Part shown: positions 21,507 to 45,152 of the stretch, piece after piece | How positions within the stretch are numbered: position 1 is the first letter of the stretch | How the letters are laid out: each line of letters begins with the position of its first letter | IMG/VR virus record: IMGVR_UViG_3300045391_003842 | Location: 1 to 64,000 of that record | DNA length: 64,000 nucleotides | Reading direction: 5' to 3' (one strand) | Source: a virus | Position numbers and translations under genes: made by a program | The notes under the pieces: generated by a model | Told to the model about the DNA's origin: nothing | The model's database searches: none | What the model saw: the letters and a program-made list of their open reading frames with translations, nothing else

Positions 21507-21700
21507 GACTGCTTGACTCCAACCCGGACGGCGCCGGGAAGTTTGCCGCTGCCGGCATGTTTCGTACAGGCCTCGTAGTTGTGACCTTGGCCACCGCAAT
21601 AGGTGCAGCGTAGCGCGTTCAGTCTACCTTGGCCGCTCCAGGTGCGCGGACAGTGGCTTGTCGGATGGTAGGCAGAACCACAGTACGTGCAATGGCTCAT
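21503..21700 (-). CDS. Double CCHC zinc-knuckle protein
   Basis: CTYCGSAYHPTSHC and CTYCGGQGHNYEAC. Confidence 0.75.
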   Translation of the reverse strand: MSHCTYCGSAYHPTSHCPRTWSGQGRLNALRCTYCGGQGHNYEACTKHAGSGKLPGAVRVGVKQS

Positions 21701-26053: not shown

Positions 26054-26352
26054 TCAGGTTGGAAGGTTGAAGATGGTTCAGTGTCTACTTACGGAGCGCA
26101 CCCGTGTCTTTCGCTCTTTTAGTCCCTCATGCCGTCTTTCTTAACTGGCATATTAAGGTGACACTAAACCACCGTCAATAGAATTATTCGGGTTACAACC
26201 CGATATTTTCGAGAAGCCGCGCCGACATCGCCTTGATGAAGTCTTCGCGCGACAGATTGAGATCGGACGGCTGGATGAAGTCAGCCAGATCCGACAAACG
26301 GCGGAACATCGCCACATTCATGGCGAAGCTGTCCAGGGCCTTGGGGGCGGTG

Positions 26353-27036
26353 TCAGCAGGGATGGGCTTGTCCTGGGCCACGGTAGGTTCCTTCGGTTAG
26401 AGGGGTGCCCGGCTGGATCTCATATCCAGTCAAGCGTTTGAGTATGTCCAGACGCTGGAGTATTTCATCCGGCGTGAACCTGTCATAGCACCCGGTCAGA
26501 TCGGGTGGTTCTCTATTCTGGGTGAACGTGGAAGTCGGCTGATCCAGCGGAACTGCATCGGCGCTCTGGTACAACAGAATCGCCGTTTCGTTGTCCCGCA
26601 CCTGGATCGTGTGGATGTCGTCATGACGCAGAAAATACACGTCATCTTTGTCGTAACGAAGATCAGAGATCCGCTCGAGTCGGCGTTCCTCGGTCCAGGT
26701 GAACCCGGCGCCGCCCAGCAATGGCGTGCGCCACTCAAACATCTGGTACGTGGTCTGGCGCGGCGTGTGAGCCTCGTTTCGCCAGCATAGGCGATAGTTC
26801 CGGTTCCACACACTGCCCGACAAACAGCGCGTCTTGAACGGGTACCGATGGTCATGCGGGCTCACCACTTCCGGCACGCGGCTGACGTCGCCGCTGAACA
26901 GGTACAGCTTTATGGTCAGCGCGTCACTGCGGTAAAGGCAGAGATAATCAAGACCTTTCGTGTGAAGGTTCTTGTAGCTGTTCTGAAGCATGTCCTCCAT
27001 GGTGAGAGGACGCGCCAGCGGTATCAATCTGTTCAT
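26353..27036 (-). CDS. Cupin-fold putative metal-dependent enzyme
   Basis: PHDH..PF....L.G motif 1 and IHTI motif 2. Confidence 0.55.
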   Translation of the reverse strand: MNRLIPLARPLTMEDMLQNSYKNLHTKGLDYLCLYRSDALTIKLYLFSGDVSRVPEVVSPHDHRYPFKTRCLSGSVWNRNYRLCWRNEAHTPRQTTYQMFEWRTPLLGGAGFTWTEERRLERISDLRYDKDDVYFLRHDDIHTIQVRDNETAILLYQSADAVPLDQPTSTFTQNREPPDLTGCYDRFTPDEILQRLDILKRLTGYEIQPGTPLTEGTYRGPGQAHPC

Positions 27037-28047
27037 GGTGGGGTCCTAGCTCTGACTTGCGATCTTGGCGTCTAGCTCAATGAGCTTATCCGCGAATTCG
27101 ATCTCACGCGCGAGTCGCAGCACGATCCACGCGTCACGTTCGGTGCGGAATAGCTGCTTGTCGGCGTTCTGCGAAGCACTGCCACGGCCGCTACTGTACG
27201 CCTCGTAGGCCTCCCGGCCGCCGGTACCGTGCACGCTGGCGGTGCTCCAACCCCTGACGACTCGGTCGCCCATGATGGTCCAGCCGAACTGGATTTGACC
27301 CGATTCGGTCTGGGTTAATCTGGCGACGTCGATCGGCGTCGGCGGCTCCAGGCCGCACATCCGCAGGGACTCCAGGCGCCGGCACCGTAGCTCCAGCGCC
27401 GCTTGCTCAGCCTTCTCCGCCTTTGTCATCGCCATCGGACGAGTCCTTTCCTCCACGGCGCATGACTTCGCGCGTCAGACACTGGATCTGGCTCAGCGCG
27501 GTCCAAGGCCGTTCTTTGCTGTTGTAGCCTTCGTAGGTGCCCTCGGTGATCAAGATCACCCGTTTAACCGTAGCCTCAAGATCAGCGACACGCTCACGAA
27601 GCCGGCGAGCGCTATGCGCCGCACGCCTCGCGTACGTATTCCCGTATGACATTGTTTCTCTTTCAAAAAGGGATTTCGTCATCCGGGTTCTTGGCGGGCG
27701 CCACGGCCGGCGTCGGCAGTTCGATCGTCACCGGCTTGCCGTAGCCTGCCAGATCCACGCCAGCGATGACGCATTGCGGCTGGAACGTCTCCGCAACCAG
27801 GGGCTTGCCCTGCGGGCGGCTCATCAGCGTATCCAGCGCGGGCTTGCCCAGGACGGTCATGGTGCTGTCAGCCAACACAGCGATGCTGTACGGCTTGCCG
27901 AAGGTGTTGGCCATCGCCTGCGCACGCTGGCGCATGATGTCCAGTTCTGTCGCAGACGCTGAGACAGGGGTGTTGGTTTGCTTCATCGGTATGACCCTTC
28001 GTCGTTATTGGTTGATGGCACTTATATGTGCCATATCGGAGGGAGAG

Positions 28048-29100
28048 TCAAGCGAAAGGAATTACAATATTTCTGACGGGCTCCGTGTCAGGCATCGCAC
28101 GATTCGCGTTGGCGTATATAACTTCTTTTGCCTTTCGTATGAAATGATCGTGTCCTCTATCTCTGGCATTTTGAAGATGCGCGCCGGTCGTTAACACAGC
28201 GGAAGCTAGAGTGTCATACACTGCTTTTATGACGGCGGCGTTTATCGCCTCGCCTATAGCTTCCCGATCTCCGCACACGTCATGAATTATAGACTCCGCT
28301 ATACCCTTCATAATAGCAGAATGGTTAGTTGCCGCTGCGGTTTTTACCCTAAGTTCTTCAGCTTTGTATTCGTTTTCAATTTGTTTCGTTATATTAGATA
28401 TCTTCTCGTTTATATGTTTACGTCTATTTTTGAATTTCTTAGTAAGTTTAATTAATTCCTCTTTCCTGCGCTGGAGTGTTTTTAACTCGTCGGCAAATTC
28501 ATACTCCGCACTGAATGACGCGTCAGTGGCCTTAAATAGTCTTACTATTACGTGGTCAACAATTCTGTTATTCTTTATATCTTCTCGTTTTTGAGAAGCC
28601 AAAACGGGCAGGGGAGTCATGCGGTCTCTAATATGTTTATTTACTTGTCTAAATAGATCCAATTTTTTTATATTAATCTCAATGTTTCTTTCTAATGTAG
28701 TTAATTCTTTTTTATAGCTGCTTACCCTTAGCTCATCAGCTATACTAGCATAGTAGTCTGAACCTGCATCTATGACGTGTATTGAGCATGATTCAATGTC
28801 GTCTGGCCTCTTAACTTTAATAACAGCTTTGTTATACTCTGGAGAAAATTTAGATATAAAATAATACTCTACATAATTCAAAATAGCTTTCTCACACTCT
28901 ATGAATGTGTAAGAATCAAAATATTTGTCACGACCTCTCATATGTTCTTTAATTCTATGCATAATGTTGGTTGACTGGCCGACGTACACTACAGATGCGC
29001 TTCTTACTAAAAAATATATGCCACATATTTCTAGTTTAGCTGGTATGGCAGCACGCATTACTATGGATGCTGCATCTATATCTTCTAATTTAATTTTCAT
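28048..29100 (-). CDS. GIY-YIG domain protein with coiled coil, strongly AT-rich
   Basis: CGIYFL.....VYVGQSTNI..RI..H and E...I....P.YN; base composition sharply different from flanks. Confidence 0.8.
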   Translation of the reverse strand: MKIKLEDIDAASIVMRAAIPAKLEICGIYFLVRSASVVYVGQSTNIMHRIKEHMRGRDKYFDSYTFIECEKAILNYVEYYFISKFSPEYNKAVIKVKRPDDIESCSIHVIDAGSDYYASIADELRVSSYKKELTTLERNIEINIKKLDLFRQVNKHIRDRMTPLPVLASQKREDIKNNRIVDHVIVRLFKATDASFSAEYEFADELKTLQRRKEELIKLTKKFKNRRKHINEKISNITKQIENEYKAEELRVKTAAATNHSAIMKGIAESIIHDVCGDREAIGEAINAAVIKAVYDTLASAVLTTGAHLQNARDRGHDHFIRKAKEVIYANANRAMPDTEPVRNIVIPFA

Positions 29101-29116
29101 GCGCTACATCCACAGC

Positions 29117-29144
29117 CAAAAGACCTTGCATTTCTGCAAGGTCT
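29117..29144 (-). terminator. Probable intrinsic terminator
   Basis: AGACCTTGCA-4nt-TGCAAGGTCT 10-bp stem followed by a short T run on the minus strand. Confidence 0.6.
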
Positions 29145-29156
29145 CATCCGACTCCC

Positions 29157-29441
29157 TCAAAAATGCGGTTCCCGGCGCCGACACCTCGTGAGCGAATCGT
29201 AGTGCATCACAAGCTGCTGCTTCGTCTCGCCGAAGATCGCCCAGAGACCCAGCGCCACCCACCCGATCAGGCTCCAGCCTATCAGGACGTTGAGCCAGAA
29301 CACCGTCCGGCGCTGCGCCATGTCACGCGATGCCGCGATGATGTACGGCACCATGTAAAACAGCGCCATAATGATGATTCCGGCGATGATCAGCGCGATG
29401 TACGCGAGTCCCACCATCGGATCCACTGTGTTGTACATCAA
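29157..29441 (-). CDS. Superinfection immunity protein (T4 Imm-like)
   Basis: Y..P.IIA..R......F.LN.L.GW..IGWV...WA. Confidence 0.85.
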   Translation of the reverse strand: MMYNTVDPMVGLAYIALIIAGIIIMALFYMVPYIIAASRDMAQRRTVFWLNVLIGWSLIGWVALGLWAIFGETKQQLVMHYDSLTRCRRREPHF

Positions 29442-30190
29442 GGTTCTCCAGCGAGGGCGAACGGCTTGCCCAGCAGTGCCGCGATCTGCTGGTTGGTCAA
29501 CATGAACAGGCGGCCGGTGCGCACGTGCGCTTCCTGGTCCACGATGAAAGACGGGAACGGCTGGGCCTGTTCATGCAGGTGGATCTCGTTCATCTGCGGA
29601 TGTTCCTTGGCGAACAGGTTGAACTTCCGGCAGAGCGATGCCGCTACCATGCGCGTCTTGATCACCTTGGCCGTCTCGCGCTCGTACGACTGCGCCAGGA
29701 TCGAAGCGTGCGGGATGTAGGGCTGCACCAGCCGGCGCCAGATATCCGCGGCAGCCGCTTGCGCATGCTTCTCCGCCCGATAGGCGCTGATGGTCACCGC
29801 ATCCGGCAGCTTGCCGATGAAGGACTGCCCGGCCAGCAGGAAGGCCAGCGGGTACGGCGCGCCGTCGCCCCGCAGTGTGGTGGACGGCGGCAGGGCCAGT
29901 TCCACCTTCACGCGCTCATAGGGCGCTTCGATCGAAAGCCGGAAACCCAGCACGCCGCGTTGGTTGGTGATGCGGGCTGACAAAGGCGGGGCGCCGTTCG
30001 TGCTGTGGGCCGCCAGATAATGACTGTCCAGCATCCAGACGCTACCGGTCTTATCGCTGAGCGTCCAGGCGGCGCACACCTTGATGGCGATGGTATTCAG
30101 CACCGCGCTGGCTGCCGTCAATTCGGCCGCGAGTTCCGGCGACAGCGCCGCGTCGGATTTCAGGATGGAGCCAGTTGTCATATCGTCCAT
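29438..30190 (-). CDS. Hypothetical protein, paralog of 37875-38654
   Basis: Shared blocks F.[LI]SI..PY.....[LI]PP, RAEK.......W.R...P, P.FIVD. Confidence 0.65.
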   Translation of the reverse strand: MDDMTTGSILKSDAALSPELAAELTAASAVLNTIAIKVCAAWTLSDKTGSVWMLDSHYLAAHSTNGAPPLSARITNQRGVLGFRLSIEAPYERVKVELALPPSTTLRGDGAPYPLAFLLAGQSFIGKLPDAVTISAYRAEKHAQAAAADIWRRLVQPYIPHASILAQSYERETAKVIKTRMVAASLCRKFNLFAKEHPQMNEIHLHEQAQPFPSFIVDQEAHVRTGRLFMLTNQQIAALLGKPFALAGEP

Positions 30191-30248
30191 TTTTAGCCTC
30201 GAATGGGAGAAGTTGGTTTACAGATCCGGGATTCAGCTTGACAGGGAG

Positions 30249-30638
30249 CTATGCAGGTTCTTTGGCCACCTCCCCATGCACGCGATCGATGGTCTTACGC
30301 AGGACGGTCTTCACCGCGTCGAAATTCATCGAATCGTTGAAACAATGGATGGTGGCCGCAGCGTCAACGTAGCCGTAATCGTACCCCATCTCCACGATGG
30401 TGTCGCCGATTGCTGCCTGTGCGCTATGATAGGCCACGGAATCAAACAAGCCATCCCGCTGGGGACGAGCCGCGCGCCGCAATGCGCCGTCCAGGCAGAA
30501 ACAGACCGCGCGCTCCGAATCGATCATGCTGGTGCGGTTGTGCCGATCACGGGCGTAGTCGCGCTGTATCCAGGCCAGCGGTTTGTCCAGAATTTTATCC
30601 GCGCCCTTCAGCACGCGCAGCAGGTTCTGACGGCTCAT
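30249..30638 (-). CDS. DUF6197-like protein (paralog 1)
   Basis: W.Q...A, CFCLDGA, I..FND. Confidence 0.65.
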   Translation of the reverse strand: MSRQNLLRVLKGADKILDKPLAWIQRDYARDRHNRTSMIDSERAVCFCLDGALRRAARPQRDGLFDSVAYHSAQAAIGDTIVEMGYDYGYVDAAATIHCFNDSMNFDAVKTVLRKTIDRVHGEVAKEPA

Positions 30639-31063
30639 GCTGCCATCTCCAACGACTTCACCGCGTGGTCCACAACCCAGAGAATGTCTTCGTAGGCGGT
30701 GCCGCTCGCGTCGTTGAAATTCCAGATCGCCTCGCGCGTGGAATAGTTGACGCGTGAATCGTTATCTTCAACGGGCGGCTCGCGCAGATCGATTGCGTCC
30801 TCCAGCGCCCGGATCACGATTTCATACACCATGTCGTCCTGCGCCGTGTCAGGCACGACGCCGCCGATGTCCCAGAGGATTTTCAGCACGGCGCCATCCA
30901 GGCAGAAGCATGACGCCAGGACATCATCCGGCTCGGCGCCTTGCATCCGCTTGCCTTCAGCGCCTTTGATCGGAACCATAGCCATCGCGCCCTTGGTCCA
31001 GTTATCTGGACTGTCGAAAAGCCGGCGCACACCCATCGCCACTTCCAACGCCGTGTAGGCCAT
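30635..31063 (-). CDS. DUF6197-like protein (paralog 2)
   Basis: WTKG..A, CFCLDGA, I..FND. Confidence 0.65.
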   Translation of the reverse strand: MAYTALEVAMGVRRLFDSPDNWTKGAMAMVPIKGAEGKRMQGAEPDDVLASCFCLDGAVLKILWDIGGVVPDTAQDDMVYEIVIRALEDAIDLREPPVEDNDSRVNYSTREAIWNFNDASGTAYEDILWVVDHAVKSLEMAA

Positions 31064-31453
31064 TTTGGGGAGTCCCTCCGCGTTCTGCTAATGTCAGTCA
31101 AACATGACAGTTGTAGAAAAGCAATAGGGTTTCACCCAGGCCGAGAAAACTTCCGGCGAGGTTTTGCGGGAAGTAGCGCGTCCAATAATTTGGTCAACCC
31201 ATATTTGAACATGACCGGAGCTACTTCAAACGTTGCCATAACGTTCCGCCGCGCGCACTGTAAGGCCTCTTGAACACCACGCCGGGCTCAGCCATAGCCT
31301 GCTTGGTCTCTTCCTCGTTCCAGGTCTCGGAGACCCAGTCACGGCCGATCCGAGTCGCGGCCATGAACTCTTTCAGCGAGTGACAGGCCATGATGGCGCG
31401 CTCGTTGCCGTTCAGATTGCCGCCATAGACCTTCAGCTTTCGACGCCGTTCCG

Positions 31454-32425
31454 TCATGAGAACGCATCCTCCCAGGTGCCGGCCGTGGACGCCTTGCTGT
31501 ACTCGGTCGCCCGGCCCTCGAAGAAGTTCATGTGCTCAATTGCGTTCAGCATTTCGTCCAGCCAGGGCAGCGGGTTCCGTGGTATATGGAACAACGGATC
31601 CACGCCGAGTTCCTGCAAGCGTCGGTCGGCGATGTACCGGATGTAGGCCTTGACCTCTTCCGACGTGAGCCCTTCCACCGGGCCTTGCTCAAACGCCAGA
31701 TCAATGAAGGCGTCCTCATGGCGCACGATCGCGGCGCAGGTCAGACAGATGTCGCGGATCAGCTTCTTGCCCCAGAGCGCCGGGTTCTCCTGAATGAAGG
31801 TGCGAAACAGCCGGATCACCGAAGCGCAGTGCAGCGATTCGTCGCGCACACTCCAGGTGATGATCTGGCCCATCCCCTTCATCTTTCCGAAGCGCGGGAA
31901 GTTCAGCAGGATCGCGAAGGACGCGAATAGCTGAAGCCCTTCGGTGAAGGCGCCGAAGGCCGCGAGCGTGCGCGCGATGTCATAGCTCGAGTCTACGCTG
32001 AACCCGTGCATGAAATCGTACTTGGCCTTCATCTCGCGGTATTTCAGGAAGGCTTCGTACTCGGTCTCGGGCATCCCGATCGTGTCCAGCAGGTGGCTAT
32101 AGGCCGCGATGTGGACGGTTTCGATGTTGGAGAAGGCTGACAACATCATCAGCACCTCCGTGGGTTTGAACACCCGCGAATAGTGCTTCATGTAACAGTT
32201 GTTCACCTCGACATCCGCTTGCGTGAAGAAACGGAAGATCTGAGTCAGCAGGTTGCGTTCCGAATCGTTTAGCTTCTTACGCCAGTCCTGGACATCGTCG
32301 GCGAGCGGCACTTCTTCCGGCAGCCAATGCACCTTCTGCTGGACCAGCCACGCTTCATAGCACCATGGGTAACGAAACGGCTTATAGACCGGGTTCTCGG
32401 TCAACAGGCTGCACGGGCTGTTCAT
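31454..32425 (-). CDS. nrdB: Ribonucleotide reductase class Ia beta subunit
   Basis: YKPFRYPW, HWLPEEVP, FFTQAD, E.VH..AY (radical Tyr), TEG..LF.SF, RDESLH, NFFE.R.TEY; start 32425 or 32455. Confidence 0.95.
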   Translation of the reverse strand: MNSPCSLLTENPVYKPFRYPWCYEAWLVQQKVHWLPEEVPLADDVQDWRKKLNDSERNLLTQIFRFFTQADVEVNNCYMKHYSRVFKPTEVLMMLSAFSNIETVHIAAYSHLLDTIGMPETEYEAFLKYREMKAKYDFMHGFSVDSSYDIARTLAAFGAFTEGLQLFASFAILLNFPRFGKMKGMGQIITWSVRDESLHCASVIRLFRTFIQENPALWGKKLIRDICLTCAAIVRHEDAFIDLAFEQGPVEGLTSEEVKAYIRYIADRRLQELGVDPLFHIPRNPLPWLDEMLNAIEHMNFFEGRATEYSKASTAGTWEDAFS

Positions 32426-34023
32426 AGTCACTCCGGGGTAAATGCGACCGCGCAAACAGACTACCTGTTGTAGCCATCGTCAAGACAACATCCAAGATGT
32501 AGCATAGTTCCTCGAACGAATCAGCGCGAACTGTCGCATGGCAGCGACAGGACTTCGGCACCGTGGTGCGCGGGAGCGCCGCCATCGCCGGGCTGAACCG
32601 GAGCCCGTGCTTGTACTGGGTCGGCAGGCGCCAGAACATCGTGAAGCGGTTGACCATGTTGGCCGCCCGGTGCCCGTAGAGCCGCACCGATGTCTTTGCG
32701 TCATGCACCGTCCTGATATGCACCACCGCAAGCTGATCGTTCGGATTGGAAGCGTGCTCCACGGTCACGGCGGCACCATGCCGCTCACCGATCCGTCTCA
32801 AAATTCCGATCATGACCGGCCGGTGCTTGCGGCGAATCTCCAGCCATTGGTCAGGCTTCGCGCGGACGGCCGCCAGCGCGTTCTTCATGTCCATCAGTCG
32901 GTATCCATCAGCAAGACGCAGAGCACCGTAGCGGCGCCCATCGCCAGAAGCACCACGATCGAAGCCGCTATGCCGAACGCCTGGAACGCCGCTGATGTCA
33001 GCACGAACAGCTTCAACACCAGGGCGAGGATGACCAGGATGGCCATCGCGCAGAGCCAGTATGTCACAGCCGCGGTTTCTGCGGACCGGCCAGGACCACG
33101 GACACCACGTATGCCTGCCCGCTCAGCAGGATGACGGCGAGCCACAGGCCGACCAGCTTCCATGCGGCGGCGGAGATCAACAGGGCGACGATGACGTAAC
33201 ACGCAAGCGCTCCCATCACAGAACCAGCGCCGCGAGGACGCCGGCCGCCATGCCCATGATGAAAACCACCACCACGAGCCAAACGATAGCCGTGCCGGCT
33301 CCGTCGAACATATTAGGGTCCACGGTCAAAGTCCTTCGTGCGTTTGAGGATGTAGAGATGGAAGCAACGAGCGCTCAATCCTTGGACTCATCGTGAGCGC
33401 CGTATTCTGCGGCATATAAACGTGCCTCCATCTCCTGCACCATCTCGTCTGACGGAAACACGCGCCAAGCTTCATCAGGCTTGCCAGACCAACACGCCCA
33501 TAGCTCATAACCGATCGGCAGTCGGCGCAACTCGAACTGGGGCGCCTCGAAGGTGTCCTTCGTCATGTCGAAATCGGGGATGTTCGGCCCCTGCGCCATA
33601 ACGATCAGGTGCTTGCCTTCGGCCGCCACCATGAAGGTAATAGTTGAGTCGGGAGGAAGACCCAGTATGCGAGGCAGAATGGACTCGGCGAACATGATAC
33701 GGACGTGGCCCATGGCTATTTCTCCCGAACAATGTGGACGATTTGCAGCTTGGTCCCAGGGCTAACCATGCTGCGCGCCAATATGATAGCCTCGGCGGAA
33801 GCCAGGGCGTTGCCCTGCATCGCCATCTCATAGTCCTGCATGGCGCCTGTGTCGGAAACCTCTACCTCTACTCGCACCTGCAAGCGCATCTCGGCGACGG
33901 CATGGCCCTTAGTTGCGCTGGTCCAAAAGTGGATCAGAAAGCGCATCGTGATATGCCTCTCAGGTTCGGACCGGAGCGGCTTTTCAGAAGCGCCAAGCAT
34001 GGCCCGCCACGCTCGCGTCATGG

Positions 34024-34593
34024 CTAGTGCGACTCCTTCTTGAATCCAGGGACGGTGGAAGCGATGGCCCGATTGACCGAGTCGTAACGCGTGCCGAACA
34101 CGATCGGGTTGCGCGTCACGGGGTGAATCCGAACCCGTTCCATGCCATGCTGTTTGACCAGAAGCGCGAAGCCCATGCGTTCCTCCCAGACTTTCAGCGC
34201 CTTGAAGTCCGGGGAGTAGACGACATCGCCTTCGCTACATTGGTACGCCAGGGTTTCGATCGCATCGAAGCATCTCGCAGCGCGGTCAACCGTGGCGATG
34301 ATCGGGACAACGCCAGCCTCGAACGACTGCGCATCCTTGAAGATGCCGTGCGGCCCAGGAAGGTTCATCGGGTTGTCCTGGCAGTCAGGATAGGCCTGCA
34401 TGACGGCTTCGATGTTGAGCGTGAACAGGCGCCGGCCAAGCCGGGTCGCGGCTTTGTGGGTGTTGACGCGCTCGCCCAGGAACCATTCGCTCAGGAAGAC
34501 TAGCCCCCTGATCGGGCTTTCAACGGTCCATTGGCCGCAGATGCCATGCACGACTTTCTGCATGGTAGAAAGGTCAACGACAAAAGCCGACAT
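34024..34593 (-). CDS. Conserved-looking phage/plasmid hypothetical protein
   Basis: MSAFVV, G..L..LN..AV...Y, YQCSE; first gene behind a repeated promoter. Confidence 0.65.
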   Translation of the reverse strand: MSAFVVDLSTMQKVVHGICGQWTVESPIRGLVFLSEWFLGERVNTHKAATRLGRRLFTLNIEAVMQAYPDCQDNPMNLPGPHGIFKDAQSFEAGVVPIIATVDRAARCFDAIETLAYQCSEGDVVYSPDFKALKVWEERMGFALLVKQHGMERVRIHPVTRNPIVFGTRYDSVNRAIASTVPGFKKESH

Positions 34594-34597
34594 CTTC

Positions 34598-34656
34598 GAG
34601 TCCTTTCGTTTCGTTTGTTATGTGGCTTTTATAGCTGCCACTTTTTAAGCTGTCAA
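34598..34656 (-). promoter_or_regulatory. Repeated promoter/operator/RBS unit
   Basis: TTGACA-gcttaaaaagtggcagc-TATAAA (17-bp spacer), then ACGAAAGGACTC RBS. Confidence 0.85.
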
Positions 34657-35671
34657 TCTAAAACAACGTAAAACGGATTCCTGACTTGCGAGGATTGCAC
34701 TACAAAAGCGCAGCACTTCCGCGTGGAATTCACGTCATCTATCCTAACCGCCGTGTCAGGCGGAACACTGCCACTGCGTATGTGCTCACCGACCGCATCC
34801 CGCAGTGCTCCCAGGACTTTGACTCTCAGGAGATTATCCAACGGGGTGTGTCTGAACTTCTCAAGATCACGAAGTATTTGCTGCCACAATTCTGGCGAAA
34901 AATTCTCGTGCTGAAAGTCAACCATTATCGTGTCTCGTTGATTGACTTGAACTCCGCCATCATCCGATAGAAGTTCTCTTGCGGGATGGACACGGTCTCC
35001 ACGCGCGGGCCGTGGGTGGAACCGCCGTACTTGCGCAGGAGCGCATTTATCGCGTCGCGTTGCTTCGCCTCCCGCAGCAGGAGAACGGCCGCAAGCTGAG
35101 CCTGCGTCTTCGGGTCATCGCTGACCGGGAAGCGGACCACGTTCGACTCGTACGCCGGCTGGAGCGACAGCAGCCAGCGCTTGGCATTGCCCCAGTAGCC
35201 GGATTCAACGCAGAGCGGGGCGCCGTTGCTGTCTTCGCTGGCGTCAATGATCGCCTTCCGAAGCGCGTTCACGCCCGCGTCGAAAGCGGCGCGAAGTGGA
35301 TCCACACCGCTCATGCCGCCTTCTCCGTGGTGTCCTCTGCGCAGCGGATGAGCACCTGATCCTGCACGCACTTGGGCAGATCGGCCCAACGGATGCGGCG
35401 GTGCGAATTGGCCATCCGCTGGCGATAGCCGGCTGCCTGATGCGCCGGCATCTCGCCCCGGTGAGAGGCGCCGTGCTCGCTGCACCCGACGTAGGATATC
35501 CAGGTGTTGCTATAAGTGCCATCCGCCACAGACGACATCGCCGTGGTGAGCATGATCGTGTAGCGGTCACCTTCGCCTGGATCGTCAAAGACGTCCAGGA
35601 CATAGTCAGGCGCACCGACAAGCCAGCGCCGAAGCGTGGCCCGTCGTGGCGTGTACAACGAGCGCTGCATG

Positions 35672-36028
35672 TCAGTCCTCCACGCCCAGGTTAAGCAGGT
35701 CCAACACCTCATCCGCGGCGGCCGGGCCAAGCAGGGCCGCCAAGCTGGCATAGCGGTCCTTGGTGACGTTGCCGCTGGGTTCAGGCTTGGACGCCTCGGC
35801 GCCGATCCCTTCAATGACACGGACCGCGATGCCGTCCTTGCCCTGCTCGCCTTCCACCCACCAGGGCGTCTGGCCAGCGTACCGCGTACCATCGGCGCTG
35901 ATGCTGATGGACGTCACGGCGCGATCGGTGCGGTCCTTCAGACCCACACGGATGTTGATGATGCAACCGGGCGCTTCGATGTGCAGAAGCTTGTCGCGCG
36001 ACTTCTCGGTTATGCTGATGTTGGCCAC
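35672..36028 (-). CDS. Hypothetical protein
   Basis: GTG start behind repeated promoter/RBS. Confidence 0.6.
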   Translation of the reverse strand: MANISITEKSRDKLLHIEAPGCIINIRVGLKDRTDRAVTSISISADGTRYAGQTPWWVEGEQGKDGIAVRVIEGIGAEASKPEPSGNVTKDRYASLAALLGPAAADEVLDLLNLGVED

Positions 36029-36035
36029 AGTCCTA

Positions 36036-36095
36036 AGTCCTTTCGTCTGTTCTTGTTGACATGGCATTTATAGGTGACAGATTTTAAGCTGTCAA
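36036..36095 (-). promoter_or_regulatory. Repeated promoter/operator/RBS unit
   Basis: TTGACA-gcttaaaatctgtcacc-TATAAA-tgcca, ACGAAAGGAC RBS. Confidence 0.88.
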
Positions 36096-36995
36096 CCGGA
36101 AAGAGTGACCGAAACCTCTTCCTCCAGCCATTTCCTGTAGGACTCGTATTGGCCTTTGACAAATGGGATGGCCGGCTCGTTGTGCTCCGCCAGGAACCGG
36201 TGCACCATCCTGGTGTTCCACAGCAGGAATCCGCACATGATGCCGCCGGGCCACCGTAGCCGGTCGCGCTCCAGCATCCCGTTAGGATCGTGCCCGTGGA
36301 ATCGGGCATAGCTCACATAGACCGGATTGAAATCCAGCGGCAGCTTACCGCAAGGATCGCTGTTCATGACACGGGCGTCCTGGTGATGGCCTGAAGCTTG
36401 ACCATCTCGTTATACTTGCGAGTGCAATTGCCCTCACGCACCATCAGATAGCCGAACGATTTGGCGCACCCGTCGTTGCAAAAGTATTGGCTTTCGTAGG
36501 TCACGCCGTCCCACACGCCGAACCGTGTTATATGGCGTTCCGGCTCGGGCCAGTAGCGCACGGAGACCACCTGAAACTCCGTGTATTGCTCGCAATCGGT
36601 CTTGGTCTTCAGGAAGGTGTCAGGCGTGATGCTGTCCTTCATGGCGGATGGCGGGCTGCCAGGATCGCGCACATAGATGGAGGTGACGCGCTTCGGAATG
36701 GCATTGCCGCAATGGCGGCAGAGAGGTGGAAGTTTTTCAGGCATTTACTCTTCCTTTATTTCAACGCCCCAAATCGTTGTCGTGCCTTGTCTCTCGTTGT
36801 GGTTGTCCATCAGCAGAAGATGAGGCGAGTTGCGGATAACGGCTTTAAGTTTCTCCAGTTCGCCTTTCTTCACCGTGATGGATAACGGGTGATCAAGACC
36901 GCAGATGCTGAACTGATCCATCAGGTTGACCACAGCCGTGGTAACCCGCGAGTCGGCGGGCGCGCCCTGGATCACGCGGGTTGCCGGCTTGGCCA

Positions 36996-37775
36996 TCAGA
37001 CGATAACCTTTGTTTGGGTGATGTCGATATAGCACCGCGCGTGGCCGTAGTATTCCTGGAGCGGTGCCAGGACATCGTCAATGTTGTCCTTGGTGACGGG
37101 CAAGAACTTCATGTCGGAAAGCGTCTGCCTGGAGGCGGCAACCATGGTCTCCGCCAGTTTAACGGCTTCCGCCTCGGCGGTGCTCGCGTCGCGGTAGACC
37201 TTGTTAATAGCGCTGCCTGGATTGTTCGGGTGGTCCGCTGTCAGGACGTAGACGGACTCCGCCGTCGCCCGCGACTCGAGCCATTGGACCAGGTACGGGA
37301 TCAGTAGCTCCGGGCGCGTCGCGGGATCGGCCTTGAACGTGTAGTCGTCGGGCAGGATGCCGCGCCGTTTCATCTCCCGCCCGATTTGGAGCCGTGCGAC
37401 TCGCTCCACCTCCCGCGTGACCATGTTGTACGTATTGTGGGCAAACAGCCGGTTGACCAGTTCCACAAGCCCCATCTGCGCCAAGCGCTCATCAACCTTG
37501 CTCAGCCGCTCAACCACGATATTGTGCTCGTCCACCACGACGCCGTCTCTGGGCAGCGTGGCGACGTAGACCGTGGTGAACATGCCGCGCTCGGGATCGG
37601 TGGGGTACCCGGAGTCCTCGGCCGCCTTGAACGCGCCACGGAACACGGCGCCGGGCGTGCTGTCCTGCACAGCGCATACCTCGGCGATGTCCGCGAGCCG
37701 GCGCAGCTTGCCAGCGGTCAACCCTCCAGGGAGGTACGCGGCATCTTCCTCGGCGGGGTTTACGATCCTATGCAT
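36996..37775 (-). CDS. Hypothetical protein; C-terminal domain paralogous to 43071-43337
   Basis: A.H...PG.....Y.D...A.AEAV.L ... G.A.CY..I shared block; ACGAAAAGGACTC RBS. Confidence 0.65.
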   Translation of the reverse strand: MHRIVNPAEEDAAYLPGGLTAGKLRRLADIAEVCAVQDSTPGAVFRGAFKAAEDSGYPTDPERGMFTTVYVATLPRDGVVVDEHNIVVERLSKVDERLAQMGLVELVNRLFAHNTYNMVTREVERVARLQIGREMKRRGILPDDYTFKADPATRPELLIPYLVQWLESRATAESVYVLTADHPNNPGSAINKVYRDASTAEAEAVKLAETMVAASRQTLSDMKFLPVTKDNIDDVLAPLQEYYGHARCYIDITQTKVIV

Positions 37776-37874
37776 TGTTTCGAGTCCTTTTCGTCAGAAT
37801 GTCGGGTTTGCCAGAGGGTCAGGCGCGTTCCTCAGAGCGTTGACTGACAACCGTCAATCAACGCCCGAGTCGTG

Positions 37875-38654
37875 TCAATCCGCGCTGGCCGTCCGCGCCT
37901 TCACCGCGCGCTCCGTGGCACGGTCAAGCACGCTTTCCTTGAGCACGGCCGCGTAAAGCGTGGACGCCGTCTCCAGTGACATGGTGAAGGTGCGGGGAAT
38001 GTTGATGATGCCGTTATAGTCAACGATGAAACCAGGAAGGTTGACGTCCTGACCCATGCCCAGCACGATGGAGTCGCCGCGATTGTCGTACCGCTTCATG
38101 CCAGGGTGGCGGCGCAGAAGTTCGATCGCCGTGGCCTTCTGTTTTTCGATGCCGGCGTGCGTCTCGTCCAGCTTGGCGCGGACCAGCGGCAGGATTTCCT
38201 GAGTCGGCACCGCGACTCGCTTCCAGAACTCCGTCGCGATCTTGGCCGAATCTTTCTCGGCCCGCTCCAGGGTGACGGAGGCTTTCAGATCGGGCGCACC
38301 GTTGGCAGCCCGATACTCGTAGCTCAGGAAATCGCGCAGGGGGTGATAGGCGCCATGGCCTGACAGAGTCGGCTTCAGCGGCGGGATGTAGCTGATGTCC
38401 AACTTGGTGTACGGGTGGCTGATGCTGATCAGAAAGCGGCCCAGATCGCCGTCCGTCACGGTCGCCCGGCAATCCATCTTCGACTCGGGCTCATCGCTCG
38501 GCGGCACCACGGTCCAGGGACCGAACCCCACCCGGCTATTGGTGCGATCATCAAAGACGTTCCACTGCACCGTCAGGTCATATGCGAACTTGCGCACAAA
38601 TGAGGTGCGCATACGATTCGCCTCGTTGTAGTCCAGAGTCCGATGGTTTTGCAT
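37875..38654 (-). CDS. Hypothetical protein, paralog of 29438-30190
   Basis: Shared motifs; ATG behind repeated promoter/RBS. Confidence 0.65.
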   Translation of the reverse strand: MQNHRTLDYNEANRMRTSFVRKFAYDLTVQWNVFDDRTNSRVGFGPWTVVPPSDEPESKMDCRATVTDGDLGRFLISISHPYTKLDISYIPPLKPTLSGHGAYHPLRDFLSYEYRAANGAPDLKASVTLERAEKDSAKIATEFWKRVAVPTQEILPLVRAKLDETHAGIEKQKATAIELLRRHPGMKRYDNRGDSIVLGMGQDVNLPGFIVDYNGIINIPRTFTMSLETASTLYAAVLKESVLDRATERAVKARTASAD

Positions 38655-38659
38655 TTTCA

Positions 38660-38718
38660 AGTCCTTTCGTCTCGTGTTCTTATGCGTCACTTATACATGC
38701 CAAACTTTAAGCTGTCAA
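38660..38718 (-). promoter_or_regulatory. Repeated promoter/operator/RBS unit
   Basis: TTGACA-gcttaaagtttggcatg-TATAAG-tgacg, ACGAAAGGAC RBS. Confidence 0.88.
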
Positions 38719-40065
38719 CAGGGTAAATAAAAAAATCCCCCACAATCACTAGATCGTAGGGGATAAGTTGAAAGGACTCGATTCGCCTGGAATCGAAACA
38801 CCAGACGATGGAGCTAACTTAGGGCCTGTGGATAACCAAAGCAACTCACAACAGACCGAGTATCCGAATTGCAATCCAGACAACAGTGATGGCCGGCAAG
38901 AAACTGGCCATGAAGCTGAAGGTTGAAAAGAATACCACGTCAAACATCGTGGGGCGACGGATGCGGCCCCAGACGTCACGTTGGATACCGCAGCCCATCA
39001 GATAGGTGAGCACCGCGATCGGCACGATGGGCAACCCCAGCGTGCGATAGGCGATCAAGCCGGCGCAGAACGATACCGGAGTCATGGCCGTCAGCGCGGT
39101 GCAGACCATGTTGGAATACTTCACAGCGGAACTACTCTTGCCACGTAACATCTCATGTACTCCATACGTTGCTGCATAGCAACAGCGTCAGCGCGTTGCA
39201 TATGACGGTCGCGGTGCGTGCCGTCCAGCACGCGATACCAGCGGTCGCCGATCCATAGCTCGAGTCCATAAAATTGGATCATGACGCGAGCGCGTAAGCT
39301 GGGGCGGAAACGGCGGGCGTGATGTCGGTGTGCGCGGTGCGGAGCGCATCGCCCGCGTCAGCCCGGCTCAGGAACCGCTCAGGCAGGGCCAGCCCATCCG
39401 GCGTGGTGGCGCGCCAGAGGAAGTTGGCGGATGCGTGCACGCGCTCATTGGTCACCGTGACGTGCCCGATAACCGTGTTGTCGATCAGGCTGACGCGGTA
39501 GCCGGTCGCCTTGCTGCCGAAGTAGGCAAGCCCAGTCGGATCACGCGTCAGCCTGGGGAAGTTGGGAGCGCTCGCGGCGCGTGCCCGTTGCAGTCGGTTC
39601 GACATGGCATAGCTCTTAGGTTGATGGTGGATAGAACGAAAGGCGGATCAGGCGATGAGAAGGATCACGAGCAGTGCCGCGCCAACACCTCCCTGAATGT
39701 CCCGACTGCCGCCCCAGGTTCCCAGCGCGACAAACAGGAGCATCAGAAAGACGATGACGGAGACGGTGCGGGCCATGGCTCAGCCCCCTGCGGCGCGCAG
39801 CATGGCCGCCGCGTCGGCGTAGGACGGCGCCGGGCCAAGCAGGGATATCGGGGTGTATCCAGGGCCGTAGCACTCTTCACACTCCAGCCGGTCGCAGTCC
39901 TCATTGGCCCACAACGCGTTTTGGAGTTCGGTATACCATTCATCGGCGTTGATGATCGGCCCGGCGAGTCGCGCCGGCTTCGCGTCCAGGTCGTTGATAT
40001 GGACCACGCGCTGGCAGCAGGCGCACCGGCCGTGATCTAAAGGAAGGCCTTCGGCCATTGTCTTG

Positions 40066-40124
40066 GAGTCCTTTCGTTGCTTTGCTTATAAGTCACTTAT
40101 ACGTGCCAGTTGCTAAGCTGTCAA
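40066..40124 (-). promoter_or_regulatory. Repeated promoter/operator/RBS unit
   Basis: TTGACA-gcttagcaactggcacg-TATAAG-tgact, ACGAAAGGACTC RBS. Confidence 0.88.
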
Positions 40125-40352
40125 CGCCTTTCTACCGGTCGCGGTAGAGTCCAACTCCTTTGACAATTAGCAACACGCAAAGCGGGATCATGATCATCAT
40201 CAGTACCATTCCCTGAGACGATTCCACTTTACTGGATAGCTCCCAGTCCACGGTAAATATAACCATCAGCATGGAAAATAGAATGAGGAACGCGGCACCC
40301 GCCAAGATAAAGAGGATGCCGGTTTGCCGGGTGTCGGTCCTGCGGGACATGG

Positions 40353-40868
40353 CTATTTGCCCTTGGCGATGCGCTGGAGCGCCGCATACGCCGTGCCATC
40401 CCAGAACAACCCGCCGATCTTCGGGTTCTCATGCGCCTGCACGCCCGGCAAAGGCTCACCCATGAAAACCGCATGGCTCCACAAGGTGTAAATCATGGAA
40501 CGAGCGCAGTCGTTACGGGCGTTTCCCGTCAAGCGCTCGGCGACTATTTGGTCCAGGGTCTTTTGCGCCGCATCCCGCAGGCGTTGCGCGTTGGTCGGCG
40601 CGGTCGGCTCAAACTCATGGGCCACCTGCCCAGGGGGCAAGAGGTGCACAGCGTCAGGGTCTTTGTCCGAGTCGACGTGATCCATGATCACAACCGAGAC
40701 GCCAGTTTCCGCGCTATGGTCCAGGAACACTTCAGATTGGCCCACGTAGAAGCTGATGAAACTCTCGCTCTGAACCACGTGGACAGGGATGGCGCTCGCC
40801 TTATCCAAAGGGTTCTGCCATGTGGGCAGGCTCAGGGTGGCGATGAGTGTACCGGCGATGGATGCCAT
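40353..40868 (-). CDS. Hypothetical protein
   Basis: 171-aa ORF after AAGGACTC RBS. Confidence 0.6.
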   Translation of the reverse strand: MASIAGTLIATLSLPTWQNPLDKASAIPVHVVQSESFISFYVGQSEVFLDHSAETGVSVVIMDHVDSDKDPDAVHLLPPGQVAHEFEPTAPTNAQRLRDAAQKTLDQIVAERLTGNARNDCARSMIYTLWSHAVFMGEPLPGVQAHENPKIGGLFWDGTAYAALQRIAKGK

Positions 40869-41103
40869 GGATAGAGTCCTTGCTGTGTGAGGTGAAACGA
40901 AGGCGCCGATCAGTCCTCGAAGTCGGTTGCGCCGACCACGTCGCCGTGCCTGTTCAGCAACGGTTCGTAGACGTGAAACCCGCTGCCGTCGTATTCATCA
41001 GCCAGTTCCCGCAGGACACGGCAAACGTCTTTGGTGCCGATATCGTCCGCGATGTCTTTGTCAACATTCATGCGGATAGTGATGCAGACCATGGCCATGT
41101 CGG

Positions 41104-41164
41104 AGTCCTTTTCGTTCTTGGTTGATGGTTTGGCACTTATACGTGACAAACTTTAAGCTGTCAA
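41104..41164 (-). promoter_or_regulatory. Repeated promoter/operator/RBS unit
   Basis: TTGACA-gcttaaagtttgtcacg-TATAAG-tgcca, ACGAAAAGGACTC RBS. Confidence 0.9.
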
Positions 41165-41553
41165 CCAGTCTTTAGCAAAACCCCTTCACGTGCATGTGGC
41201 GGCTCGTATTCAACGCGCTTCCAGGTGGACACCTCGGACTCTCCCGTCAGCATCAGGCACACCGCGACGTCCACGATCCCGCGCTGGTTGGAGATGTCGG
41301 AATGGAATGCCAGTCCAGCCGCATTGATGCAGGAGACCAGATCGCGCATGACACGGCGCGGAAAGAAGCCGATATGGATGGGGTAATAGACGTTGCGGCC
41401 GTCCGCGTCCGTGGCGTGCACATGCAGGTTGATGCGCACCTTGCCCCTGACCTTGGCGTCTAGCATCCCATCCGTAACGATATCTGACATGGCTCGAGTC
41501 CTCTCAGGTTGTCTGTTTGTCGAAAGTCTAGTGGTAGACTGTGGAATTTGGAA

Positions 41554-42240
41554 TCAAAAGACCAGAGAGAGTTGCCTGGATTCCCGTTCTGTTTTCTCAC
41601 GCTGTCGTGCACGCCGTGCGATGCCGGCCTTGATTGCCTCATGGCGACGCCTGGATTTGTCCAGCCGCCTCCGTATCCGGATTTGGGTCACCGCTTCCTT
41701 GCGGCGCGCTTCGGCATTGGCCCGCCATTCGGGTGTCGTGTGCCGGGTGCAGCGCCATGGCGTGAGCGTCGGGATCAGCTTGATGACGGGTTCAATCTCG
41801 GGACCATCCGTCCAGGTGCAGGACGCCCGACCGGCCTTGACGCTGACGGTAAACGCAACGTCGGGGAAGGCCTCCGTCAGCAAGGCCAGATAGCGCTTGC
41901 GGTCCGCGGCAGCCTCTTGCCGCTTGGCGATGCCGTCAGCCTTCGCAGCGGCCCGTTTGGCAGGCTCAGCGGCGCGGCGTGCGGCTTCCTTGATGTCCCA
42001 TTCGCGTAGCATCTCATCCAACTCAGCGCGTGTGGGCTCGCGGTGGAAATGGTACGGGACGAAATGGCCCTGGTATGGATTGCCAGCGGCCGTGCGCACG
42101 TCCAGCGGCGCCGGGCCGCCAATCCAGGACACGCAATGCGCCCGCATCCGACCGCGCCCGGCTTGGCCATAGCTGAATTCGATGTCGGGATACGTCTCGG
42201 CGAGACGCTGCTTGACATCGCGTATCGTGTGCTTGCTCAT
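41554..42240 (-). CDS. Tandem LPD29-like (large polyvalent protein domain) protein
   Basis: Two copies of L...[FY]P.[IV].F[ST]...[VC].W..GP (LAETYPDIEFS..VSWIGGP; LTEAFPDVAFT..CTWTDGP). Confidence 0.6.
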   Translation of the reverse strand: MSKHTIRDVKQRLAETYPDIEFSYGQAGRGRMRAHCVSWIGGPAPLDVRTAAGNPYQGHFVPYHFHREPTRAELDEMLREWDIKEAARRAAEPAKRAAAKADGIAKRQEAAADRKRYLALLTEAFPDVAFTVSVKAGRASCTWTDGPEIEPVIKLIPTLTPWRCTRHTTPEWRANAEARRKEAVTQIRIRRRLDKSRRRHEAIKAGIARRARQREKTERESRQLSLVF

Positions 42241-42410
42241 GCTGCCAAATCCACGGCTCGAGTCTCGCCCTGCGTGCTGAACAGCACGATCTTGCCCGCC
42301 CAATCCAGCGCCAGGGTCCAGATGCGCCGGTTGGCGTCAAAGATGATGTCGCATGACACCGTGAAACCAGTGGGCAGAAGATAGCCTCGGAATTCGGTGC
42401 GCATGGCCAG

Positions 42411-42470
42411 GAGTCCTTTCGTGCGGTGTTCTTATGTGTCACTTATGCATGACAAACTTTAAGCTGTCAA
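42411..42470 (-). promoter_or_regulatory. Repeated promoter/operator/RBS unit
   Basis: TTGACA-gcttaaagtttgtcatg-CATAAG-tgaca, ACGAAAGGACTC RBS. Confidence 0.88.
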
Positions 42471-43070
42471 CACCTATCGTGCACGTTCAATGCGTTCGAT
42501 CGTCAGGCACCATGCCTTGCTGGACGGCTCAAAGCTTTGCCGTTTGTAGCCATGGCCATGGCACATGCGGACAAACTCGCGGTTTAGCTCAAACAGCATG
42601 GGCCAATGCTTACGCTGCGCCCCCTTGACGTTCAGTCTCGCCACGGTGATCTGGCTTTCCACCGCACGCATCGCGGCCGTGCGGGTTGGCTTGGTCGCCT
42701 CCCAGCGCTGATCAGGCTCGTTGTTCGGACCGATAACGACAGTTACGGACACCTTCCAGACAGGTGGCTTGCGCTTCAGGGCCATGGCTCAGTCCTCCAA
42801 CGATTTGGCTTTGGCCACAGCCATGTCGTGCCAGGAATGCCGCTCCAGATTGGTGATAATCTCCACCATGATGGCTGACGCTGTACTATCTGCGGTGTGG
42901 TGGTCGCCGATAAACCGGCGCCGTTTCATCTCACGCACGATCTTGCCGCGCTCGGCCCGCTCCGCCTTGCGCGTGAGCACGTTGCAAGTGCTATTGGCGA
43001 AGAACGAACGCGCCAGATAGGCCGCTGGAATGGCGCGCAATGGGTTGGTGCTCTTGGTCATGGCTCACTC

Positions 43071-43337
43071 CTACTGCAACGTTTCTTCGCGGATGCAAAC
43101 ATAGCAATTCGCGTCGCCGAAGGATTCCGGAACCGACTCCAGCGCCGCTTCCCACGTATCCGCCGTGGCCGGCGTGTAGTCCTCTTCCCGAATCTCGCAA
43201 AAATCTTTCAGGATGAGGTTTGTTAATTCCACTGCCTCAGCAACGGCCCGATCCTTGTCCGTGTACAGACGCATGACCAGACCTGGAACGCTGTAATGTT
43301 CGGCCATAACGATATGGATTGTCTGCGGCGTGCTCAT
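43071..43337 (-). CDS. Hypothetical protein, stand-alone version of the C-terminal domain of 36996-37775
   Basis: Shared motif block; GGGAGA RBS. Confidence 0.6.
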   Translation of the reverse strand: MSTPQTIHIVMAEHYSVPGLVMRLYTDKDRAVAEAVELTNLILKDFCEIREEDYTPATADTWEAALESVPESFGDANCYVCIREETLQ

Positions 43338-44363
43338 GGCTGATTCTCCCTAGTCTTGTGTGGCAAGGTACGCGGTGATGACAGGGTGCGGCGTGCCATC
43401 CTCGGCGGGCGGGTAGTCGCAGCGGGCAAACCAGTTGCCCATGAACGGCACGGCCGTATGGTGGCAGGCGTCGCCGCCGCATTCCTCGCAGAACTCGAAT
43501 TCAAAGGTCTCTGCCAGCCATTGCGAGGCTGGAGTCGTGAGGTTGCTTGCCATGGTTCAGTCCTCCGTCGATGGCCTGATGTTGCGGCCCCTGGCATCGG
43601 TCAGGGCAGCGCCGTACCCCCTCGGCAGGCCAGTGCGCAGGGTGGTAAGCAGTTTGAGCATGGACTCGAGCGATACCCCTTCCTTGAACTCCAGGGCCAG
43701 ATGCAGGTGCGCCTTGTTACCCTCGAATCGGTACACGCGCAGGTTGCAGGGGTATTGAGTGTCGGTGCCTTTCGGCGCGTTCTTGGCCATTATTCACCCT
43801 CCCGAAAGACCGTCCCGTGCAGATCGCCGAGAGACTGCACCATGGCGATGCAATCCGCATCCCTATGGTTCATCTCCGCCGCGATGCGGGCCGCCTCGCG
43901 CTTGGTACGCCAGCCGCGCTGGACCCGGACGTTGTAATGAGGATGCCGGCGCATTGGGACGTCAGGTTGTGCCGTCCGCATGGTGTAGCGGCCGTTGTAC
44001 GCCGGGTTGGTCCCGAACACATACCAGCCAGGGCCATAGCCAGGATCACGCCGCGCGAAGTGTTGGGTGAAATGGCCACCACGGAACCCGGTCAACTGGA
44101 TGATGACGGGCTGATCGCAGATGGTGGCGTTGATGCGCTCTTGCGCCATTAGGACGCACTCCCCTTGGCCGCGCAATGCTTGCAGAGATAGGTTTGCAAA
44201 CGGCCGCCCGTGTAACTGTCAGCCGCTTTGGCGTCCTCGAAATAGTTGAAAGGTGTGACGGTGAGGCCGCAGACAGTATCGGCGCTGCGGAACGCCTTGG
44301 CCCGGTCAAATACGCCGGCCATCTTGTGGAACTTGCCGCCGTTCACTGAGATAAGCATCCGAT

Positions 44364-44460
44364 GAGTCCTTTCGTGGTTGCTGTCGTTGTTGATGTCACT
44401 TCTATATGACACGACAGCTTAACGCAAGGACTCTTTTTACATTGTCACCTATACGTGACA
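44364..44460 (-). promoter_or_regulatory. Variant promoter unit with two operator palindromes
   Basis: TGTCA-N8-TGACA at 44394-44411 and 44443-44460, TTGCGT at the -35 position, ACGAAAGGACTC RBS. Confidence 0.7.
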
Positions 44461-45152
44461 GGATACTTTGACGTTATCGCGCAGGATGCAGGGCGATTGC
44501 CAGGGCAGGGCGAGAATGCCGGTCGCCAGGGCGCGTAGCTCCGCCGTGAAGTCGGCTATGGGCATGCGTGGCGTCATGGGTGGCTGTGTCTCACGCAGTA
44601 GGGTGGAGAGGCTGGCCCAGAGCGCCAACAGGTGGTCTGCCATCGATAGCGCCTGCGATGGGAACTCGACGTACGACTCCGCATGCAGCCAATCCATGAG
44701 CGCGCTGCGTCTGAGACGGGCGGTGATCAGCGCCGGCTCGTTGCCCAGGAATTGGAACATCAGGTTGATGTCGGAGGCCACGGTGCGCAGCGCGCCGGTC
44801 ATGTCGTTCTGCGTGAGACTGGCGGGTGCCAGGGACAGACGGAAGAACCACAGCGTGAGCGCACCATCCACGGTGAGCGTGAAGCGGTATTGGTGCAGGC
44901 CCTTCTGCGTCGGGCTGTCGGTGATCGGCCGGGCGCAGCCTGCCAGGAGCGTGAGGCGCAACAACCGATGCGGCAGGGGCAGCGTGCAATCCAGCCGGCC
45001 GGGAATGGGCTGGGACGCCGTAGGCACACATGCGTTGGGGCTGGAACTGATTAAGGGGTTGGGGAGTGTCATGTCTATCTCTCTGGCGGCTGATTGGGCT
45101 TTTAGTGCAGGGCCATCATAACGTGTGGGATGTCATGCGATGGTGACGTTTG

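Follow-up and report, generated by a model that had tools for sequence, protein, structure and literature searches.

Repeated promoter-like units with an embedded dyad at the head of small-gene blocks in a viral contig

What does a virus gain by placing almost the same short sequence in front of one block of small genes after another? The question is raised by positions 1 to 64,000 of IMG/VR record IMGVR_UViG_3300045391_003842. This window makes up the opening 64 kb of one record, 115,788 bp long and with 60% G+C. Its minus strand carries six near-identical units, 58-61 bp long, each made up of promoter-like boxes, a dyad and a ribosome site. An initial annotation had proposed that such units act as recombination joints for the gain, loss and shuffling of early-gene cassettes. 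The analysis described here favours a role in expression: the six units are probably copies of one module that launches the leftward early genes of a phage, itself uncultured and probably virulent. Cassette shuffling at the units is unproven.

The units can be recognized without the help of their spacer words. The composite pattern TTGACA-N10-TGNCA-N3-ATAA-N15-30-AAAGGACT has exactly six matches, all on the minus strand, and none in 100 dinucleotide shuffles. When a position weight matrix is built from the six units, they score 62-68 bits, and the next best site in the 115.8-kb genome scores 12. The six units lie where the initial annotation had placed them. Every one lies in a gap between minus-strand open reading frames (ORFs) and has the same orientation as the genes.

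The unit at 42412-42470 (P42470) shows the general plan. TTGACA is followed after 17 nt by CATAAG, which is overlapped by a dyad, TGTCA-N8-TGACA; a leader then runs to ACGAAAGGACT, and the start codon is at 42404. The other units, also on the minus strand, are P41164 (41104-41164; start codon 41098), P40124 (40067-40124; start codon 40058), P38718 (38660-38718; start codon 38654), P36095 (36036-36095; GTG start at 36028) and P34656 (34599-34656; start codon 34593). The -35 hexamer matches TTGACA in full, and the spacer is 17 nt long, in 6/6 units. The -10 box is TATAAG in three, TATAAA in two and CATAAG in one; its second position is always A, and its sixth is G in four units, A in two and T in none. 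The start codon lies 29-33 nt beyond the dyad. The predicted leaders are about 30-35 nt long and A/C-rich, and they end in ACGAAAGGACT 5-9 nt ahead of the start codon. At the level of sequence, the description of these units as promoter and ribosome-site modules with an embedded operator is well supported: TTGACA, 17 nt, TATAA(G/A), a dyad and a ribosome site stand together at the head of gene blocks.

Conservation among the six units is block-wise. The invariant blocks in their alignment are TTGACAGCTTA, TG.CA, ATAA and AAAGGACT. The longer word ACGAAAGGACT is exact in five units, has one additional A in P41164, and recurs exactly in a degenerate unit, at 44375. Within the spacer, GCTTA is the same in all six, and conservation does extend into the spacer as had been claimed. 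The bases between TTGACAGCTTA and ACGAAAGGACT vary freely. This pattern points to selection on function and not to recent copying. No AT-rich tract precedes the -35 box of the units. The leader RNA shows no consensus structure, no match to an Rfam family and no tRNA, and a conserved leader RNA was rejected as an explanation of the units on these grounds.

The short word AGGACT also stands upstream of many internal genes of the array. Because of this, it is the usual ribosome site of the phage, and only the longer ACGAAAGGACT is specific to the units. At many gene starts (for instance 42765-42796, 43041-43072 and 43533-43564) the form AGGACT(C/G), often as AGGACTGAGCC-ATG, is used instead of GGAGG.

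The dyad is 18 bp long (TGKCA-N8-TGMCA) and lies across the -10 box, from about -19 to -2. Its distribution reaches well beyond the six units. Exact TGNCA-N8-TGNCA sites occur 29 times in 115.8 kb, against 2.75 expected from Markov-1 simulations. Eighteen of the 29 are intergenic in a genome whose non-coding share is 12% (p = 2e-10), and several of those scored as coding actually lie within units. Nearly all promoter-proximal dyads have a centre that resembles a -10 box when read in the direction of the gene. In degenerate copies of the unit, the distance from TTGAC to the dyad varies (spacers of 17-19 nt, or no box at all). A centre that stays -10-like while this distance varies is what an operator shaped around the -10 box would show. 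Read most simply, the dyad would be the operator of a dimeric protein and would surround the -10 box at about 20 promoters of the early and replication regions.

Two other functions of the dyad have to be weighed against an operator. It could be a nucleic-acid hairpin that attenuates or terminates transcripts arriving from upstream. In the promoter/stem-loop modules (PeSLs) of T4-type phages the stem-loop lies mostly between the boxes or over the -10 box, which is the position of the dyad here (PMC2839356), and some copies (28051, 44411) can form stems of 6-7 bp. Yet the arms show no compensatory change, their central base being complementary in 10 sites and not in 12. The fold energies of the units, -4 to -11 kcal/mol, stay within the ranges of their shuffles (means -4 to -8). 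For these two reasons the dyad is not a conserved hairpin. In addition, no run of T follows it, and the minimum-energy fold of several units leaves it unused. A terminating hairpin is thus highly improbable. Alternatively, the dyad with its TA-rich centre could be the recognition site of phage-directed transcription, read by a sigma-like or polymerase-redirecting factor, with the TTGACA of the six units an add-on. About ten dyads upstream of genes have a -10-like centre without a -35 box (among them 5012, 50438, 51158, 51343, 54516, 55646 and 69648), the -10 hexamer lacks its usual final T, and the 186-aa product of ORF 56044-56604 weakly matches, at its C-terminus, a helix-turn-helix of the sigma/LuxR kind. 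Symmetry about the -10 box is, however, typical of repressor sites and not of those of sigma factors, and the six strongest sites have a perfect -35 box at ideal spacing. All helix-turn-helix hits are sub-threshold. No MotA-type factor was found, although control genomes likewise gave no hit and this is weak evidence. Recognition by a phage factor is accordingly quite unlikely.

If the dyad is an operator, the module can be pictured as a host RpoD-type promoter, an 18-bp dyad over the -10 box and start-site region, and an unstructured leader with a ribosome site. Host RNA polymerase would start at each module. A dimeric DNA-binding protein seated on the dyad would block access to the -10 box, and the roughly 20 promoter-associated sites in the genome would in this way be turned off or switched over as one set. 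Since only one junction has a terminator, there is probably also read-through from each block into the next. Any recombination between modules would be incidental, brought about by their being short direct repeats. What is seen directly is the anatomy of the sequence, the excess of sites, their intergenic placement and the lack of hairpin covariation and leader structure; from sequence we infer promoter activity, early timing, repressor binding and the host.

Several points weigh against this account. The predicted RpoD promoter has a -10 box without the final T that E. coli-type promoters keep almost always. Alphaproteobacterial -10 consensus sequences are looser at position 6. The account leaves the invariant GCTTA of the spacer without a role. 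No convincing dyad-binding protein was found in the phage; the best hints are helix-turn-helix matches below threshold in the products of two ORFs, 56044-56604 and 20133-20522, each downstream of a dyad-bearing promoter. Finally, IMG/VR classes the record as a linear viral contig and puts its completeness at about 76%, which leaves room for a regulator or recombinase beyond the end of the contig.

Weaker copies of the unit lie at 20.9, 26.2, 28.0, 31.1, 44.4 and 55.6 kb. The degenerate copies reported between 26 and 44 kb were found as described: exact dyads begin at 26146, 28016, 31092 and 44394, with TTGAC-like boxes and with ribosome sites nearby. The copy at 44364-44428 (minus strand) has an exact dyad at 44394-44411, an exact ACGAAAGGACT and a weak -35 box, TTGCGT, ahead of a start codon at 44358. 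At 31070-31124 (minus strand) weak boxes accompany a dyad at 31092-31109, and the start codon is at 31063. The copy at 28016-28051 (minus strand) has TTGACT, 19 nt and TATAAG, with a perfect dyad, TGGCAC-N6-GTGCCA, and a start codon at 27986. The one at 26146-26178 (minus strand) consists of TTGACG, 17 nt, TAATAT and a dyad. Outside this span, 20885-20922 (minus strand) carries TTGACG and a dyad before a start codon at 20856. On the plus strand, 55626-55663 carries TTGACT and a dyad at 55646-55663 before a start codon at 55688.

The neighbourhood of the 44.4-kb copy is unusual. Next to its dyad, at 44412-44432, lies a fragment of a unit that is inverted (plus strand) and has lost its interior (CGACAGCTTAA-CGC-AAGGACTC), so that part of the -35 box and spacer is joined directly to the ribosome-site word. 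Beyond the fragment there is a second exact dyad, TGTCAC-N6-GTGACA (44443-44460), whose centre contains the TAG stop of ORF 44449-45072 (207 aa). The two perfect dyads in 44394-44460 are 31 bp apart, with the fragment between them. A separate observation concerns the 100-nt gap at 37776-37874 (minus strand) within the P38718 block. The words TTGACA and TTGACG occur in it, as does an inverted repeat of 6 bp, and GACGAAAAGGACTC precedes the start codon at 37775; the gap may be a decayed internal unit.

Some further dyad sites deserve mention. Directly behind the dyad-bearing promoter at 20.9 kb, ORF 20449-20856 (minus strand) encodes a protein of 135 aa whose N-terminus weakly resembles a winged helix and whose long tail, rich in Lys, Arg and Ala, recalls histone H1. 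Its product is a candidate DNA-binding protein. An ORF-poor stretch of 1.1 kb at 50423-51508 lies where leftward and rightward genes diverge. It has low G+C, a turn in GC skew and dyads at 50438, 51158 and 51343. The half-site (C)TGACAC then recurs about five times in direct orientation at 51367-51457, just upstream of a 79-aa ORF at 51509-51748. The stretch may be a control region or a replication origin. At 59280-59320, just past the gene at 58138-59274, the dyad is extended to an 11-bp inverted repeat (gtatcgTGGCA...TGCCAcgatac), which may be a terminator or a stronger binding site.

A detail that had been taken as characteristic of the units is a stop codon inside the -35 box, where the TGA of TTGAC ends the preceding gene. 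ORFs do end there at all six places named, but the arrangement does not stand out as a special feature. Three of these places are canonical units: in P41164 the TGA at 41163-41161 ends ORF 41161-41490, in P36095 it ends ORF 36092-36367, and in P34656 it ends ORF 34653-34925. The remaining three belong to degenerate copies. The stop of the low-GC ORF that begins its coordinates at 28048 lies in the 28.0-kb copy, that of ORF 20919-21599 in the 20.9-kb copy, and that of the plus-strand ORF 55390-55629 in the 55.6-kb copy. The frame that uses the TGA is thus found in 3/6 canonical units (binomial p = 0.32 against the 1/3 expected) and in 6/11 units in all (p = 0.12 against the same expectation). 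For the remaining three of the canonical set, the preceding ORF has already ended, 4, 8 or about 30 nt short of the box; the one ahead of P40124, for instance, ends at 40132. The word TTGACAGCTTAA has TGA in one frame and TAA in another, and an incoming ORF is stopped within 12 nt in 2/3 frames. With stops in two of three frames and genes this tightly packed, such endings are to be expected. Close packing of genes, and not design, accounts for the stop in the -35 box.

Behind the units, a leftward gene run at 31221-44358 (minus strand) comprises about 35 small genes in seven promoter-headed blocks. The blocks were curated from minus-strand ORFs by third-position G+C (GC3) and ribosome sites. 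P44411 heads 7 genes, P42470 and P41164 head 3 each, P40124 heads 4-5, P38718 heads 5, P36095 heads 3, and P34656 heads 6 or more, among them the gene for ribonucleotide reductase (RNR) beta. Further left, P31124 is followed by 4 genes and the low-GC ORF, and P28051 by 4 genes. Each unit does head a block, as the initial annotation had it, although a block holds about 3-8 ORFs and never just one. Neighbouring genes of the array routinely abut or overlap. Among the six canonical junctions an intrinsic terminator is found at one only, between the P40124 block and P38718: a 13-bp stem followed by a run of T at 38735-38764 (minus strand), just upstream of the latter unit.

Nearly all products of the array have no family; the exceptions are RNR beta, an LPD29 domain, two DUF6197 proteins and phrog_8313. 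Some genes in different blocks are distant paralogues (38654 with 30190, and 37775 with 43337 and 43061; 24-46% identity), and these are not framed alike by units. The low-GC ORF at 28048-29100 (minus strand, 350 aa) lies at the end of its block and abuts P28051. Its GC3 is 0.33, against 0.71-0.79 in the other blocks and about 0.75 in the genome, and it has a sub-threshold GIY-YIG match (E = 6e-4). It looks like an inserted gene of the homing-endonuclease type. On the plus strand, three small genes at 54538-55629 are tandem paralogues, as a 45-nt word is repeated in them (54764, 55046 and 55380); the last of the three ends in the -35 box of the plus-strand unit.

The closest known counterparts of the units are the PeSLs of the T4-type phages RB49 and phi1 (Arbiol et al. 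2010, PMC2839356; Comeau et al. 2014, PMC4122927). PeSLs are strong sigma70-like promoters with stem-loops that act as effective terminators, and they include an upstream stop codon, a ribosome site and a start codon (PMC2839356). In both systems a repeated unit extends from an upstream stop through a host-type promoter to a ribosome site and start codon, and stands between small early genes without assigned function. A predicted strong promoter of the host sigma70 type lies between small, presumably early genes in 6/6 units here. In both, too, a dyad element commonly overlaps the -10 box. The initial annotation had spoken of a different architecture. This does not apply to the position of the dyad, as the PeSL stem-loop is most often between the boxes or over the -10 box (PMC2839356). 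It does apply to its nature: the present dyad is weak and AT-rich at its centre, its arms do not covary as pairs would, and it is no terminator hairpin. Other differences are that the units head blocks of 3-8 genes and PeSLs one or two, that an AT-rich tract upstream of the -35 box is missing here, and that the dyad recurs at about 20 promoters genome-wide. By their sequence, the units appear close to PeSL cassettes but without the terminator hairpin.

Dispersed operator sets offer a second comparison. The stoperators of Cluster A mycobacteriophages are likewise short sites repeated some 20-30 times per genome, mostly intergenic or at promoters; they are asymmetric, bound by a monomer, block elongation and belong to temperate phages, whereas the site here is symmetric and centred on the -10 box (PMC9283540). 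No repressor gene or lysogeny function was identified in the phage. The C1 operators of phage P1 are a scattered set under the control of one protein. With 29 sites against 2.75 expected and 18/29 of them intergenic, the dyad has the over-represented, promoter-associated distribution of such a set. Phages also repeat promoters as such. T5, T7 (A1-A3) and T4 (early promoters) use several copies of host-polymerase promoters, conserved beyond the hexamers, to drive host-takeover genes right after infection. The units differ from these families in the embedded dyad, in the conserved leader end ACGAAAGGACT and in a -10 box that ends in G or A and not in T.

Could the units, like PeSLs, also serve as recombination joints? 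Exchange between copies would then delete, duplicate, circularize or import blocks, and the array would be a shuffling zone. In RB49 and phi1, exchange between PeSLs explains differences between the two phages and yields mini-circles (PMC2839356). The layout here is comparable: direct repeats of about 60 bp, 70-84% identical in pairs over 63 nt, flank blocks of genes without assigned function, as in those phages. The inverted, internally deleted fragment between the two dyads, the abutment of the sole compositionally foreign gene on a unit, and the spread of old paralogues over different blocks fit occasional rearrangement at block boundaries, without establishing it. On the other side, no two units have an exact run in common that is longer than 22 bp, and for most pairs it is 12-15 bp. 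Block-wise conservation speaks against recent homogenization, the blocks are uniform in composition (the GC3 range given above), and the paralogues are old and differently framed by units. No relatives bearing the units were found by megablast, or by unit patterns in viral and metagenome collections beyond chance. Overall, the internal signs lean mildly against recent shuffling, and a role as recombination joints is rather unlikely. A broader version of this idea is doubtful. It would make the units mobile 'expression plugs' of an undescribed lineage of alphaproteobacterial phages, in which a repressor operator has replaced the PeSL hairpin, so that a block recombining in would gain strong early expression together with a genome-wide timing switch.

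The search for relatives covered several collections. Megablast of 30-45 kb and 1-20 kb against a phage collection gave no useful match. The promoter patterns had no match in viral contigs; in metagenome contigs the promoter pattern had five matches, all attributable to chance, on unrelated low-GC contigs without dyads. The array proteins 36996-37775 and 37875-38654 were not found in viral contigs. No homologues of the former were found, and those of the latter are only 35-38% identical and were not located in the viral or genome contigs searched. Relatives of the primase are 44-48% identical. A 216-kb contig from an uncultured alphaproteobacterial assembly (G001:C7) shares only DNA polymerase A, the primase and an adjacent gene, at 45-68% amino acid identity. 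On that contig the shared module (polymerase A, primase, methyltransferase) lies at the contig end, and the 120 kb examined (95962-215961) contains no dyad, no repeated unit and no array protein. The replication module travels on its own, because nothing else in the adjoining 116 kb is shared.

As copies of one expression module, the units map early transcription units and a regulatory network of roughly 20 sites in a phage lineage without a cultured relative. The genes behind them are candidates for host-takeover or anti-defence functions, and the module is a potential expression part for Acetobacteraceae-type hosts. Should close relatives come to light, the array would also suit the question whether repeated promoters direct gene exchange in phages other than the T4 type. 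It adds an example, not a new principle.

Several further readings were tried and set aside. Mimicry of a host promoter was rejected after the extended motif was found once in 301 alphaproteobacterial genomes, the same as a reversed control pattern. GCTTAA does not find support as a T4 MotA box, as no MotA domain was detected; the control genomes were negative as well, which makes this weak evidence. For a sigma54 promoter, TGGCAC...TGC has a GG-to-GC spacing one base too long, and its second G is T in half of the units. Hairpin promoters of the N4 type were discarded, as there is no covariation and the 1614-aa protein has no family match. An integron-like cassette array was likewise dismissed: the repeats are promoters without a folded-site signature, and no tyrosine or serine recombinase (no Phage_integrase or Resolvase match) was found in the 115.8-kb record.

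Genes of the record encode DNA polymerase A, a primase-helicase, an SNF2 helicase, a Dda-like helicase, an exonuclease, a topoisomerase, ThyX, MazG and RNR beta. The last of these (31454-32455, minus strand) is the best clue to the host. It is 80-84% identical to proteins of Acidiphilium, Acidocella, Roseomonas and other Acetobacteraceae, and it is far nearer to its matches than any other phage gene is to anything. This suggests a recent capture from the host, which from this identity is probably an alphaproteobacterium of the family Acetobacteraceae, probably an acid-soil or acetic-acid bacterium. The phage also has two DNA methyltransferase genes, at 10557-11699 and 16970-18058. The GACTC form of its ribosome site fits GANTC, the site recognized by CcrM-type methyltransferases of alphaproteobacteria.

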